Below, one piece after another: positions 27,377 to 44,478 of a stretch of DNA of 64,000 bases. The position numbers and the translations under genes are program-made. The stretch's first letter is position 1; each line of letters starts with the position of its first letter. Under the pieces are notes generated by a model. It saw nothing but the letters and a program-made list of their open reading frames with translations. It was not told where the DNA came from and ran no database searches. The DNA is taken from contig CAWHBU010000006.1 in assembly GCA_963827685.1 (NCBI GenBank), forward strand, positions 224,001 through 288,000, given 5' to 3'. The stretch comes from an uncultured delta proteobacterium (lineage in GTDB: Bacteria > Desulfobacterota > BSN033 > UBA1163).

Positions 27377-27722
27377 CTTAGTCATATTTTCATGGTTTGT
27401 GGGTGACGAACCCGTCATGTAAAATTTGTTTAAAAATAAAACTTTAAATCTGGGCCTGAAGAGATCATCCAACCGGAAATTCTTGTCGAATTCATCATCA
27501 AAATTGTCGAAACCCGTTATCAATCGAAATCTAAGAAGAAAGCATTTACTGCTTCAAAAGGATCGACAAACCATTCCGGTTTAAAACTAAGCCTTAAGGC
27601 TCCATTTCTTACAAGAATTGAATTTATCCAACTGTCAAAGGCCTTAATAAGCCAATGAATATTTTAAATAAATCGGCCTGAGGATGCTCAGGAATATGTT
27701 TTGAATTCTTTTGAAAATGGAT

Positions 27723-27738
27723 TGGCACAGGAGTTGCT
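27723..27738 (+). promoter_or_regulatory. sigma54 promoter
   Basis: TGGCACAGGAGTTGCT matches the TGGCAC-N5-TTGC consensus exactly. Confidence 0.85.
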
Positions 27739-27872
27739 GTCATATCAAATGTGCAGATGTTTCGCTTGGAGATGGAATGTAAATGCTTAAATTTTTGGAA
27801 GCGTAAGGAGTCATGAATAAAAGGCCTAAATAATACGTCAAAAGAAGAAAAAGAGGAGAGGAGGTAAGATTT

Positions 27873-28355
27873 ATGAAAAAGGCAATCATTGCATTAGGGT
27901 TGGTAATGGTAATGTTTTTTGGTGTTTCATATGTCTATGCGCAAGAGCAGGGTGACCCTCCAAGGCATGGGTGGATGCACGGCGAGAAATCCTGGGGCCA
28001 AGGGAAGAGACTTAACCTCACCCCGGAGCAAAAGGCAAGGTTCCAGGAATTGCGTCGAAAGTTTATAGGAGAAAACGCTCAACTCATAGGTGCACTTGTG
28101 GTCAAAAGGCTGGAACTCAAGTCACTTTGGACCGATCCAAAAGCTGATTCCCGGGCTATTCTGGCTAAGGAGAGGGAGTTGAGAGACCTTAAAAACAGGA
28201 TGAAGGACAAGATTGTGCAGTATAGATTGGAAGCTCGCAATTCCCTCACGCCCGAACAGATTGAGAAGCTTGGAATGATGGGAGGAATGGGCTTTGGTTT
28301 TGGTCGTGGTTTCCACCACCGCCATGGCCAAGGAATGGGCCACCCTGGAATGTAG
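27873..28355 (+). CDS. Spy/CpxP/ZraP-family periplasmic chaperone / heavy-metal sensor
   Basis: Signal peptide, LNLTPEQ and LTPEQ (LTxxQ) motifs, Gly/Met/His-rich tail. Confidence 0.88.
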   Translation: MKKAIIALGLVMVMFFGVSYVYAQEQGDPPRHGWMHGEKSWGQGKRLNLTPEQKARFQELRRKFIGENAQLIGALVVKRLELKSLWTDPKADSRAILAKERELRDLKNRMKDKIVQYRLEARNSLTPEQIEKLGMMGGMGFGFGRGFHHRHGQGMGHPGM

Positions 28356-40913: not shown

Positions 40914-41625
40914 ATGGATTTGATCGAACTGCGGGACATTCACAAGACGTACCATCTCGGTGAGGTGGATCTGCCAGTGCTCAAAGGCGTATCGCTGAAC
41001 GTCGCCCACGGCGAACTCATGGCGTTGATGGGCGTCAGCGGCTCCGGCAAAAGCACACTGATGAATATCCTCGGTTGCTTGGATCACCCGACTTCAGGCG
41101 AGTACTGGCTGGACGGCCACGAAATCTCCGGGCAGACGGCAAAGGAACGCGCCCGGCTGCGGAATCGGATAATCGGGTTCGTTTTTCAAAACTACAACTT
41201 GCTGCCGCGCACGACGGCGTTGGAGAACGTCTTGATGCCGCTGAGCTTACACCAAGGAGAACCTCAGTGAGCATCAAAAGAAACAGCGCGCCGCCGAGTT
41301 GCTCCTGAAAGTTGGCTTGGCGGATCGCATTAATCACCAGCCGTCTCAACTTTCCGGCGGCGAACAGCAGCGCGTGGCGATCGCCCGGTCGCTGGTCAAC
41401 CGGCCACGGGTGCTCCTCGCTGACGAGCCGACCGGCAACCTCGACTCGCGCACCAGCGAGGAACTCCTCCAGATGTTCCAGCAGCTCAACAGCGCCGACG
41501 GCATCACCATCATCCTCGTCACCCACGATCCCGGCGTGGCACAACACGCCCAGCGGATCATTCGCATCAAGGATGGCCTCATCGAGAGCGGCACGGGTCC
41601 ATCCAAACCCGGAGGTGCCGCATGA
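40914..41625 (+). CDS. MacB/LolD-family ABC ATPase (apparent +1 frameshift at ~41247)
   Basis: Walker A GVSGSGKST, LSGGEQQRVAIAR, LLADEPTGNLD, VTHD. Confidence 0.88.
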
Positions 41626-42995
41626 AATCGTACGGCATCCTGAAAACGGCTTCAGGCGCGCTCCGGCGCAACGTCATGCGCACGATGCTCACCACGCTGG
41701 GCATCGTCATCGGCGTTGCAGCGGTGATCACGATGATGGAGATCGGCAAGGGCGCAACCATCGCCATCCAGCGCACCATGACCAGCATGGGCGCCAATAC
41801 CCTGGTTATCTTGCCCGGAGCCGCTAACACCGGTGGCATCAACTACGGGGTCGGCAGCATGATGACGTTGACGCCGCAGGATGCGGATGCGATCATCAAA
41901 GAGTGCCCCGCCGTCGGTAGCGTGGCGCCGATCGTGCGCGCCCGCACACAACTGGTATACGGAAACCGCAACTGGGTGCCGACATACATCTACGGCACCA
42001 CTCCGTCGTTTCTGCAGGTACGCGATTGGACCGATATGGACGAGGGTGAAGCGTTCACCGAGCATGACGTCCGCAACTCCAGCAAAGTGTGCATCGTCGG
42101 CCAGACAATCGTAAGGGAGTTGTTCGGCGGCCAGTCGCCCATCGGCAAGGAGGTCCGGGTCCGGAACGTGGCGTTTAAGGTCATCGGCGTGTTGGGGAAA
42201 AAAGGCGCGAACATGATGGGCATGGACCAGGACGATATCCTGTTGGCGCCCTGGACGACCATCAAATATCGCGTGGTCGCTTCCTCGCTCGGCGCCGCCA
42301 ACCAGAGTGCGACCAACACGAGCATCAGCACCGAAGTCAATACGCTCAGCCAAATTTACCCGAACCTCCAGCAGAATCTTTACCCGGTTCCGTCAACCAC
42401 CGAGCAGGCCGACGTGCCGCAGCCGATCCGGTTTACCAATGTGGACAATATCTTGACCGCCGCGAGGTCGACCTACCAGATTCCTTCTGCCATCCAGCAG
42501 ATCACCATGTTGCTGCGCGAACGTCACCGCCTTCACACCACCGATCCGAATGATTTCAACGTTCGTGATATGACCGAGATTACCAAGGCGCTGACTTCGA
42601 CGACAGAGTTGATAACCAAACTGCTGTTGTGTGTGGCGATGATCTCGCTGGTGGTCGGCGGCATCGGCATCATGAACATCATGCTCGTCTCGGTCACCGA
42701 ACGAACGCGTGAAATCGGCCTGCGCATGGCGGTGGGTGCCGAGCCGGGCGACATCCTGCGGCAGTTTTTGACCGAGGCGGTCGTGCTGTGCCTGCTCGGC
42801 GGCACGGTGGGCGTTCTACTGGGCCGCGGCAGTTCGTACATTGTGTCTTCGGTATTGCACTGGCCGACGGCAGCTTCGGTCGGGGCGATCGTGGCTGCTG
42901 TGGTCGTGTCGGCCAGCGTTGGCGTTATTTTTGGCTTCTATCCGGCGTGGAAAGCGTCGCGGCTCGATCCCATCGACGCGCTTCGGTATGAATGA
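41622..42995 (+). CDS. MacB-family ABC permease
   Basis: LTTLGIVIGVAAV, GGIGIMNIMLVSVTERTREIGLRMAVGA, PAWKASRLDPIDALRYE. Confidence 0.95.
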   Translation: MKSYGILKTASGALRRNVMRTMLTTLGIVIGVAAVITMMEIGKGATIAIQRTMTSMGANTLVILPGAANTGGINYGVGSMMTLTPQDADAIIKECPAVGSVAPIVRARTQLVYGNRNWVPTYIYGTTPSFLQVRDWTDMDEGEAFTEHDVRNSSKVCIVGQTIVRELFGGQSPIGKEVRVRNVAFKVIGVLGKKGANMMGMDQDDILLAPWTTIKYRVVASSLGAANQSATNTSISTEVNTLSQIYPNLQQNLYPVPSTTEQADVPQPIRFTNVDNILTAARSTYQIPSAIQQITMLLRERHRLHTTDPNDFNVRDMTEITKALTSTTELITKLLLCVAMISLVVGGIGIMNIMLVSVTERTREIGLRMAVGAEPGDILRQFLTEAVVLCLLGGTVGVLLGRGSSYIVSSVLHWPTAASVGAIVAAVVVSASVGVIFGFYPAWKASRLDPIDALRYE

Positions 42996-43005
42996 GGTAG
43001 CACTG

Positions 43006-44478
43006 ATGAATGAGAAAGAACAACCGCGCTCCGTTTCGGTCTTGGTAGCGGCGGTGGGTTTAGCCGTGTTGGTAGTAAGCGGGTGCATGGTCGGCCCGAA
43101 TTATCATCCGCCGCAACCGACAGTCCCCACTACATGGGTCGGCGTGACGGAGACGCCGACTGGCCAACCGTCTGTGGCCACTGCGCAGCCAGCCGACCTC
43201 ACGCAGTGGTGGCAGCAGTTCAACGACCCGACATTGACCGCGCTGGTCGAGGAAGCGGTGAAGACGAACCTCGACCTGCGGCTTGCCGAGGCGCGCTTGC
43301 GCCAAGCCCGCGCCACGCGGGGCGTAGCCGTGGGTGGTTTGTGGCCGGCGGTCACTGCCTCTGGCAGTTACCAGCGATTGCACACGGCGGGCGTCACGCC
43401 GGACAACCAAGTACAAAATCTTTATCAGGCGGGTTTGGACGCTGTGTGGGAACTCGACCTGTTTGGCGGCTACCGCCGCAATGTCGAATCCGCCAACGCC
43501 AACATCCGGGCCGCGATCGAAAATATCCGCGACGTGCAGGTCAGCCTTATTGCCGAAGTGGCGCTCAATTATATCCAACTCCGCGGTTACCAGCAGGAGA
43601 TCCTGATCGCGCAAAACAATCTGAAAGCCCAGCAGCAAACCTCTGAGATCACTCATAAACGATTGGACGTGGGTTTCGCCAGTGCGCTCGACGCCGCCAA
43701 CGCCGACTCTGACGTCGCGACGACTGAGTCTCAAATCCCGGTCTTTGAAACCGCCGCGCAACAATCCATCTACGCGTTGAGTGTGCTGTTGGCCCGGCCG
43801 CCGGCGGATTTGTTGAAGCAGTTGTCGCCGACGGGCAACCTGCCCAGCGTGCCAGCGCAAGTCCCCGCCGGTTTGCCGTCGGACTTGCTGCGGCGCCGGC
43901 CCGACATTCGCGAGTCTGAGGCGCAACTGCATGCCGCCACCGCCCAAATCGGTGTCGCTATCGCTAACCTCTTTCCTAGGTTTTCACTAACCGGCACGGT
44001 GAACTGGCAGAGCAACCTGCTGCGCACGTGGTGGACTGAAGCCAGCCGCTCGTTCGGCGTCGGTCCCTCGGTGAGTTGGCCGATTTTCCAGGGCGGCGCG
44101 ATTGTGTCGAACGTACGTTTGCAGAAGGCGCTACGCGACCAGGCGTTCATCGCGTACCAGAAAACAGTCCTGGCGGCGTTTCAGGATGTCGAGAATGCGT
44201 TGATTGCGTTTGCCAAGGAACAGCAGCACCGCAAGGCGCTTAACGACGCCGTTGTCGCCAACCGCAAGGCCGTGGACTTCTCATTGCAGCTTTACACCGA
44301 GGGCCAGATCGATTTTCTCAACGTGCTCAATGCCCAGCGTTCGCTTTACGCCTCCGAAGACGCGTTGGTGCAGAGCGAGCGGAACATCGCCACCGATCTC
44401 ATCGCCCTCTACAAAGCCTTGGGCGGCGGTTGGGAATCCGTGCCGTTTGGTAAGTTGGACACTACTCAGGGAAAATGA
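43006..44478 (+). CDS. NodT/OprM-family outer-membrane efflux lipoprotein
   Basis: SGCMVGPNY, WWQQFNDP, WELDLFG, PSDLLRRRPDI, LYKALGGGW. Confidence 0.95.
   Translation: MNEKEQPRSVSVLVAAVGLAVLVVSGCMVGPNYHPPQPTVPTTWVGVTETPTGQPSVATAQPADLTQWWQQFNDPTLTALVEEAVKTNLDLRLAEARLRQARATRGVAVGGLWPAVTASGSYQRLHTAGVTPDNQVQNLYQAGLDAVWELDLFGGYRRNVESANANIRAAIENIRDVQVSLIAEVALNYIQLRGYQQEILIAQNNLKAQQQTSEITHKRLDVGFASALDAANADSDVATTESQIPVFETAAQQSIYALSVLLARPPADLLKQLSPTGNLPSVPAQVPAGLPSDLLRRRPDIRESEAQLHAATAQIGVAIANLFPRFSLTGTVNWQSNLLRTWWTEASRSFGVGPSVSWPIFQGGAIVSNVRLQKALRDQAFIAYQKTVLAAFQDVENALIAFAKEQQHRKALNDAVVANRKAVDFSLQLYTEGQIDFLNVLNAQRSLYASEDALVQSERNIATDLIALYKALGGGWESVPFGKLDTTQGK

Follow-up and report, generated by a model that had tools for sequence, protein, structure and literature searches.

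Among described systems, the one closest to the locus analysed here is ZraPSR of E. coli and Salmonella, in which an LTXXQ-type periplasmic protein of the ZraP family is encoded directly behind a consensus sigma-54 promoter; in enterobacteria, zraP transcription depends on ZraR and a sigma-54 promoter and responds to zinc and envelope stress (PMC4987338). Other parts of the locus recall the housekeeping bamA-skp(-lpxD-fabZ-lpxA) cluster, the lipoproteins BamE and OsmE (SmpA_OmlA fold) and the exporter MacAB-TolC. The locus lies in a 64,000-nucleotide (nt) stretch of contig CAWHBU010000006.1 from an uncultured delta proteobacterium (hereafter the window, in whose coordinates all positions are given; genes are named by their start). 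It encodes a ZraP-like chaperone, several exported proteins with Tyr/Pro-rich tails, two Skp proteins, a BamA and a MacAB-type pump. We propose, with a probability of about 0.5, that the core unit of this locus is a ZraP-type sigma-54 regulon for envelope or metal stress, in which lineage-specific cargo genes have acquired copies of one promoter-leader module.

The evidence for this proposal centres on a promoter-leader cassette of about 190 nt. Exact matches to TGGCAC-N5-TTGCT are found in the window at 27723 and 30899, where 0.02 would be expected, and none of 100 shuffles gave two such sites. The first element, TGGCACAGGAGTTGCT, lies about 135 nt before the ATG of the zraP-like gene and places a sigma-54 promoter site upstream of zraP. 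A 213-nt block spanning the sigma-54 site, leader and initial zraP codons has a second copy at 30869-31081 with 93% identity (93-94% between the two cassette copies). The second zraP frame stops after seven codons and gene 31184 comes next; past this gene, the last 80 nt of zraP recur (31844-31923, 93% identical to 28279-28358). Because 5′ and 3′ remnants of zraP flank 31184, the interior of a zraP copy has been replaced by this cargo gene.

The cassette is also found in other genomes. Relatives were collected by a profile search of genome contigs for the tailed lipoprotein family described below, based on a 22-member alignment; it returned 282 pattern matches, of which 260 were confirmed, and the 80 retained gave 76 distinct loci (L numbers below). 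These come mostly from metagenome-assembled genomes (MAGs) of Thermodesulfobacteriota, with some Syntrophales-type, Geobacteraceae, Desulfomonilia and Nitrospirota MAGs. Twenty-seven window proteins were compared with them by tblastn (E ≤ 1e-6); many of the loci end at contig ends, so that all locus counts are lower bounds. Searched with blastn, the segment 27640-27875 has 11 homologous copies: two in the window and nine in eight related loci (L005, L006, L008, L010, L015, L018, L020, which has two, and L035). A site scan over 1.07 Mb (the 76 loci and part of the window, both strands, at most one mismatch, GG/GC core fixed) yielded 70 sigma-54 sites, about one per 31 kb per strand. All six zraP-like genes (window, L005, L006, L008, L020 and L035) have such a site no more than about 140 nt upstream; the script flagged four of the six, and the sites in L005 and L008 stand 40-45 nt before the start of the tblastn match. 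Elsewhere the cassette precedes mid-domain genes of the tailed family (L015, L018 and L020) or heads a string of c26, skp, lipoprotein and YW genes (L010), and YW homologs in L029 and L040 have TGGCAT-type sigma-54-like sites 73-74 nt upstream. Four cargo types thus stand behind one promoter-leader cassette. An earlier note on this DNA had tied the Tyr/Pro-rich genes to sigma-54 promoters, and the presence of the cassette upstream of such genes in other genomes bears this out.

Two candidate regulatory features were considered and set aside. A structured riboregulator in the leader was ruled out, since the leader fold is not significant (z = −0.59) and the leader alignment shows no covariation, and a recurrent sensor kinase nearby was rejected because the candidate 'HK' cluster (8 loci) is generic and not consistently adjacent. 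Separately, a perfect hairpin or palindrome, CCTGAGGATGCTCAGG (27677-27692), precedes the -24 element by 31 nt. L018, L015 and L020 retain part of it and cassette copy 2 lacks it; it might serve as a binding site for an activator or as a terminator of upstream transcription.

The protein encoded behind cassette copy 1 scores 55.3 bits against PF13801 (cut-off 29.2) and 33.1 bits against PF07813 (LTXXQ; cut-off 24.3), contains two LTPEQ motifs and a Gly/His/Met-rich C-terminus, and has ZraP (3LAY, E = 2.5e-7) as its sole PDB relative. Unlike in ZraPSR, there is no adjacent zraSR, the score for the NCBIfam ZraP equivalog NF008584 falls short (39.5 bits against a cut-off of 200), and the promoter-leader is reused for unrelated cargo genes. 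A zraP homolog occurs in 5 of the 76 loci (L005, L006, L008, L020 and L035), consistent with the earlier suggestion that a Spy-family chaperone travels with Tyr/Pro-rich genes. The order zraP, membrane-protein gene (28520), lipoprotein gene recurs in L005, L006 and L008, and homologs of 28520 are present in four loci (these three and L023). The exported protein 32089 has one homolog, which follows zraP in L020, while tblastn found none for 32729 in the 76 loci. Two neighbourhoods were observed besides these. Directly upstream of the zraP-lipoprotein module of L006 (3815-6648) are genes for a ZnuA-type zinc-binding protein, an ABC ATPase and an ABC-3 (znuB-type) permease. In L005 and L008, a gene for a Peptidase_S11 D-Ala-D-Ala carboxypeptidase (c83, e.g. 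L008 8447-9373) stands between zraP and the membrane-protein gene, giving the module there a peptidoglycan theme.

The tailed family is multicopy, with 8 loci in each of two MAGs, 6 in two and 5 in two, and its architecture is modular. In the window, the 34174 protein fuses the domains of the 28957 and 29764 proteins, and 28957 corresponds to the fused form without the mid domain. The relationship is visible in the DNA: 28940-29238 matches 34157-34452, the 28957 gene is 84-86% identical to 34157-34452 and 34828-34919, and 29830-30123 matches 34471-34764 with 86% identity. Signal peptides or lipoboxes are visible in the window translations, and the five small proteins with Tyr/Pro/Trp tracts (28957, 29764, 30502, 31184 and 34174) carry one or the other. 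For the fused protein, AlphaFold2 predicts a small alpha+beta N-terminal domain, followed after a disordered linker by four helices and a tail without order; in the 29764 model, residues 41-120 have pLDDT values of 90-97 and the tail is below 50. Foldseek against the PDB returned nothing at E ≤ 0.001 for the N-terminal domain, with BamE 5wam as the best match (E = 0.027, probability 0.99, TM(target) 0.40) and BLIP and OsmE scoring alike. For the mid domain the best PDB match had E = 0.45; an SLH-like fold was considered and rejected, its matches reaching only E of about 2 with probabilities of 0.16-0.18. The window lipoproteins resemble BamE and OsmE in having a lipobox and a small domain predicted to be alpha+beta. 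Unlike BamE, they stay under the PF04355 gathering score of 23.2 bits (18.4 for 28957, and 20.5), are multicopy, carry an extra helical domain and a Tyr/Pro tail, and belong to a family that never adjoins bamA within the flanks retrieved for the 76 other loci.

The family is large and almost entirely unnamed. Among 2212 candidates scored, 1561 were relatives of the 239-residue fused lipoprotein at E ≤ 0.001; the 120 relatives listed are 59-100% identical to it (the 100% entry being the window's own protein), and nearly all are unnamed, one being named BamE by NCBI. An alignment of 24 helical-domain sequences has invariant N, G, W, I, A, D, Y, P, T and P residues, with the motif NGWIADYP.TP. 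Its profile had no match to PDB sequences at E ≤ 10, and Pfam gave no credible match for any of the 24 members; the same profile reached 636 clusters (50% identity) at E ≤ 0.001, and the stricter limits of 1e-10 and 1e-30 left 532 and 230 of them. Matches in the protein atlas were unnamed Thermodesulfobacteriota clusters plus a weak DUF4124 lead (0.78), and longer relatives of 420-570 residues have an N-terminal DUF4124 domain in 99 of the 120 listed, with a Tyr/Pro/Trp stretch and then a long Gly/Ser/Arg tail past the helical domain. Tails across the family range from Tyr/Pro tracts ending in RHWR to the GGGHGGGH type. Homologs of the YW protein (31184) were found in 11 of the 76 loci, and one of the WVPGYW protein (30502) in L048, beside a mid-domain gene. 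Our literature search found no paper on the tailed family or on Skp paralogs of the Skp1 kind. As side observations, a c-di-GMP-I-GGC riboswitch (window 841-920; 72.5 bits, gathering score 59) lies just upstream of the gene for a secreted 226-residue DUF4124 protein (995-1675), and a bacterial-type family lipoprotein is encoded on a 1758-nt contig titled Methanotrichaceae archaeon (L066), which is probably misbinned.

Both Skp proteins of the window are well above the PF03938 gathering score of 32.4 (101.7 bits for Skp1, 104.1 for Skp2), with a match to the PDB Skp 8gl8 at E = 8.6e-11, and their genes are 70% identical to each other in the internal duplication comparison. An skp gene stands directly upstream of a lipoprotein gene in 4 of the 76 loci (L007, L010, L015 and L023; tblastn). 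Skp1 is 77-89% identical to these four Skps and 66% identical to Skp2; Skp1-type proteins are 74-89% identical mutually, with Skp2 the outlier at 62-66% to each. Judged by sequence, Skp1 appears to be the Skp paralog that accompanies the lipoprotein family. The earlier link of the Tyr/Pro-rich genes to a Skp is borne out in other genomes for the Skp1 type; Skp2 sits with bamA.

Based on these data, we propose a plausible mechanism. An enhancer-binding regulator encoded elsewhere would fire the cassette promoters under envelope stress, the presumed inducing signal. The cargo behind them, in operons whose extents are putative, would comprise the ZraP-like chaperone, the multicopy tailed family, small Trp/Tyr/Pro-rich proteins and, in a relative, the Skp paralog. 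The products would exit via Sec, and the lipoproteins also via Lol. The ZraP-like protein and Skp1 would serve as holdases. The tailed proteins, predicted to consist of an optional BamE/OsmE-like lipoprotein domain, a conserved four-helix domain and a disordered Tyr/Pro or Gly/Arg/His tail, may hold an envelope ligand by the helical domain, while the sticky aromatic tail would bind or shield something in the envelope.

The bamA gene of the window encodes five POTRA stretches and pieces of an Omp85 barrel distributed over all three frames (TIGR03303 504 bits, cut-off 297), which read 35099-36880, 36789-37223 and 37106-37357. Comparison by tblastn with the intact 751-residue P0121, which is 98% identical, places 1-nt indels near 36840 and 37075; the frame is shifted for about 235 nt and then restored, with four in-frame stops between the indels. 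The breaks are likely a sequencing artefact caused by systematic long-read errors rather than decay, because P0122 and P0125, BamA relatives of 590 residues from other long contigs, are truncated at different positions of the G/C-rich stretch of about 40 nt in which the bamA of the window first loses its frame. Identity is 92-98% to the closest public proteins and no lower than 82% to any of the 120 listed, several of which their sources name BamA, so that the protein gives no sign of specialisation as far as sequence can tell. The pair resembles a housekeeping bamA-skp locus in its five-POTRA BamA above the TIGR03303 cut-off, with skp 6 nt further on. It differs from such a locus in lying without lpxD, fabZ or lpxA, none of which was found among the 41 flanking window ORFs (open reading frames) of at least 118 residues scanned, as had been stated before; in lying in a variable island and being missing at the corresponding site of L051; and in its two frame breaks. 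Away from the conserved neighbourhood, it recalls the duplicated bamA2 of Pseudomonas and the myxobacterial paralogs at non-canonical sites (PMC4104836); unlike those duplicates, its sequence is not diverged. By this analogy the window gene might be an accessory copy. The Tyr-rich BamA loop described for Bacteroidota (PMC12578637) is only loosely related.

Comparison with other loci places the bamA-skp2 segment among the additions to this region. None of the three BamA pieces had a tblastn match in the 76 loci, and 35023-37476 had no blastn match in any of them (query 33000-39600). In L006, only about 100 nt separate the fused lipoprotein gene from a downstream homolog of lipoprotein gene 38346 (93.5% DNA identity; homologs in two loci, L006 and L007), and the order in L023 is skp, lipoprotein, 39027 homolog, macA. 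Because L006 and L023 lack bamA-skp2 between the lipoprotein gene and the next genes, the segment is an insertion relative to the nearest architectures. It looks like an ordinary BamA-Skp pair placed in an island, a passenger there and not a dedicated partner. We also observed that copies of the 77 nt just 5′ of bamA and the 77 nt just 5′ of gene 38346 lie side by side between 28957 and 29764 (29374-29449 and 29491-29567, paired with 35029-35101 and 38260-38336). Their order is that of the joined ends of a bamA-skp2 segment, and the arrangement may be a trace left behind by a duplication or by a circular intermediate.

Downstream, the genes for an adaptor (TIGR01730), an ABC ATPase (PF00005), a permease (PF12704 and PF02687) and an outer-membrane factor (OMF; TIGR01845) form one operon, as in MacAB-TolC with its MacB_PCD/FtsX permease. 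Unlike in MacAB-TolC, the ATPase and permease are separate genes and the OMF is a lipoprotein of the NodT type; the GC content of the block is foreign, and two of its genes are frame-broken. Between 40 and 44 kb the GC fraction rises to 0.60-0.61, from 0.41-0.49 elsewhere in the window (0.61 versus 0.45 for the block). MacA, MacB and OMF homologs are encoded in 2 of the 76 loci, L023 and L073, with 74-86% protein identity; macA and the ATPase gene, which have one 1-nt indel each in the window, are single ORFs in both. The cassette has a GC content of 0.58-0.61 in all three places, with a step at the start of macA in the window and in L023. Homologs of 39027 occur in two loci (L007 and L023), directly before macA in L023. 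Since the GC step and the 39027-macA junction recur in L023, the cassette is a real transferred block, and the idea that the GC jump stems from a chimeric assembly was rejected. MacAB-OMF looks like a horizontally acquired efflux cassette, again a passenger and not a dedicated partner. As an additional observation, L023 (4429-7281) carries MacB-type permease genes as a tandem pair, with 86% and 81% identity to the single one of the window; L073 also has a single one.

Taken as a whole, the region forms a variable genomic island in which envelope genes have gathered, and only some of these belong together. L051 shares the flanks of the window region: a 581-residue oxidoreductase, a POR gamma subunit, a histidine phosphatase (84%) and a radical-SAM protein (76%). 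Its gap between the histidine phosphatase and radical-SAM genes spans about 3 kb, where the window has 21 kb, and holds only genes for a 114-residue lipoprotein and a 477-residue mid-domain protein. Segmental duplications of 84-93% identity connect both halves of the window region. All sizeable ORFs from 27873 to 44478 are on the plus strand, and the genes listed by the earlier note are real; coordinates are collected in the table. For the small proteins 28520, 30502, 32089 and 32729, Pfam (E ≤ 5) and NCBIfam gave nothing usable. A separate observation concerns 24145-26743, between the histidine phosphatase gene and zraP, which encodes a 621-residue NPPW protein with a weak N6_Mtase match (E = 0.0017) and two small ORFs, all without homologs in the 76 loci; the segment resembles an inserted restriction-modification or defence element within this variable gap.

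Table. Features of the envelope-gene region of the window.
Feature	Position	Strand	Basis or remark
Sigma-54 promoter-leader cassette, copy 1	27640..27875	+	-24/-12 element TGGCACAGGAGTTGCT at 27723-27738, exact consensus
ZraP-like periplasmic chaperone (CpxP/Spy/ZraP family)	27873..28355	+	PF13801 and PF07813 above cut-offs
Small membrane protein with two transmembrane segments	28520..28834	+	no Pfam or NCBIfam match
Lipoprotein, BamE/OsmE-like N domain joined directly to Tyr/Pro tail (RHWR end)	28957..29334	+	DNA identity to 34174 gene
Secreted mid-domain protein, tail Tyr/Pro then Gly/Arg	29764..30339	+	86% DNA identity to 34471-34764
Secreted Trp/Tyr/Pro-rich protein of 86 residues (WVPGYW)	30502..30762	+	translation; no family match
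Sigma-54 promoter-leader cassette, copy 2, plus first 7 zraP codons, then stop	30869..31072	+	site 30899-30914
Secreted Pro/Tyr/Trp-rich protein (YW family)	31184..31651	+	between 5′ and 3′ zraP remnants
Two small exported proteins, no known family	32089-32514, 32729-33250	+	no credible family match
Skp1	33542..34069	+	PF03938 E=5e-29
Fused lipoprotein of 239 residues: BamE-like N domain, linker, four-helix mid domain, Tyr/Pro tail (RHWR end)	34174..34893	+	
bamA (5 POTRA + barrel), two 1-nt indels	35099..37357	+	Pfam/NCBIfam domains, tblastn
Skp2, 6 nt past bamA; start codon uncertain	37363..37938	+	PF03938 E=1e-29
Lipoprotein	38346-38723	+	93.5% DNA identity to L006 gene; match in L007 too
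Secreted Lys/Glu-rich protein	39027-39341	+	homologs in L007, L023
MacA adaptor	39512-40889	+	frame break near 40605
ABC ATPase	40914-41625	+	break near 41245
MacB-type permease	41622-42995	+	PF12704+PF02687
NodT-family outer-membrane factor lipoprotein	42988-44478	+	TIGR01845

Several observations weigh against the regulon proposed above. Only about 7 of 108 family-cluster proteins have a recognisable upstream sigma-54 site, the window's own mid-domain gene 29764 has no cassette, and most paralogs, especially those with the mid domain only, lie amid unrelated housekeeping genes in the clustered ORFs of the loci; the sigma-54 link to the tailed family accordingly seems real but partial. The cassette copies and adjacencies are homologous and come from a handful of related MAGs, amounting to few independent events. 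The domain scan of window ORFs found no sigma-54 activator or zraSR-like pair within the window, and a single GAFTGA protein was present among all called ORFs of the 76 loci. Four of the five frame breaks in the window lie within 35.1-41.3 kb, a clustering that may reflect decay of part of the island. The fifth, and the only one seen outside 35-41 kb, is near 59.8 kb in a gene for an NMT1_3 (TAXI-type) solute receptor (59404-60374, minus strand), split into two overlapping ORFs that cover profile positions 1-159 and 168-289. Some of these points suit an alternative in which nothing beyond accretion has taken place, the gap between the histidine-phosphatase and radical-SAM genes being an insertion hotspot and the adjacencies reflecting the shared ancestry of a few MAGs. 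The two-gene site of L051, the methyltransferase-like gene in the same gap with homologs in 0 of 76 loci, the segmental duplications, gene remnants and foreign-GC block, and the unrelated neighbours of most family paralogs are all as this alternative would have them. However, it does not readily accommodate one promoter-leader cassette before four cargo types, a sigma-54 site at 6 of 6 zraP-like genes, or a distinct Skp paralog clade that, within the data set, occurs only beside family members, and we consider it unlikely. It is a still more distant prospect that the ZraP-like protein and the His/Gly/Tyr-rich tails serve mainly as a periplasmic sponge for zinc or another metal under a ZraSR-like circuit, rather than in protein quality control. 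The 'heavy-metal resistance' match to PF13801, the zinc resistance-associated protein 3LAY as sole PDB relative, the His/Met/Gly tail of the ZraP-like protein, the GGGHGGGH-type tails of many mid-domain paralogs and the znu-type genes upstream of zraP in L006 speak for such buffering; the Tyr/Pro tails of the window, on the other hand, are poor in classical metal ligands, the zinc-transport neighbourhood is confined to one locus, and no metal sensor was found nearby in the window scans or among the locus ORFs.

The earlier note had put forward a stress-induced, dedicated assembly line for self-associating Tyr-rich proteins, with Spy and Skp as their chaperones, an extra BamA and its private BamE-like lipoproteins as the insertion machinery, and MacAB-TolC as the exporter. 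Its proposed parts are indeed co-oriented within 17 kb, the predicted fold of the N-terminal domain has BamE as its best, though weak, match and one homolog bears the name BamE, the Mac cassette adjoins family genes in L023 and L073 too, and BamA paralogs at non-canonical sites are on record for Pseudomonas and myxobacteria (PMC4104836). Against it, BamA is missing from all 76 related loci, is an insertion by comparison with L006 and L023, and is too close to ordinary BamA to be a diverged specialist; the lipoprotein family does not behave like a single BAM subunit, given its sub-threshold PF04355 scores and up to 8 loci per MAG; the Mac cassette is foreign in GC content and lies near the family in only two loci; and bamA, macA and the ATPase gene are frame-broken as sequenced. 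A private BamA loses either way, as real breaks would mean a broken line and artefactual ones leave a gene that looks like an ordinary BamA. A predicted complex between BamA residues 175-751 (P0121) and the lipoprotein N-terminal domain scored 0.00 in a run without controls and counts neither way. Co-occurrence of the Tyr-rich genes with spy, skp, bamA and mac in other genomes, which had been chosen beforehand as a test, was found for spy, skp and mac and never for bamA. We conclude that a private BamA and exporter for Tyr-rich proteins are not supported, and that the dedicated line is very improbable.

The regulon reading could also be taken a step further. The proteins with the mid domain and Tyr/Pro tail may form a new sigma-54-induced envelope class of Thermodesulfobacteriota and Nitrospirota, with its own Skp paralog, in which a conserved ligand-binding four-helix domain anchors a sticky aromatic or Gly/Arg/His disordered tail; lying in the periplasm or at the surface, this tail would build a shielding layer or trap metals or soil phenolics. 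We regard this extension as rather unlikely. If it is true, it would represent an envelope-stress branch without counterpart in model bacteria, and the genome of the window would have been caught recruiting a bamA-skp copy and an efflux pump. For the regulon itself, if the cassette does control the genes that it precedes, uncultured Thermodesulfobacteriota of soil and peat would possess a ZraP-type response to envelope stress in which a sizeable, unstudied protein family forms the main cargo, and the locus illustrates how one promoter-leader module can be copied before new cargo genes.

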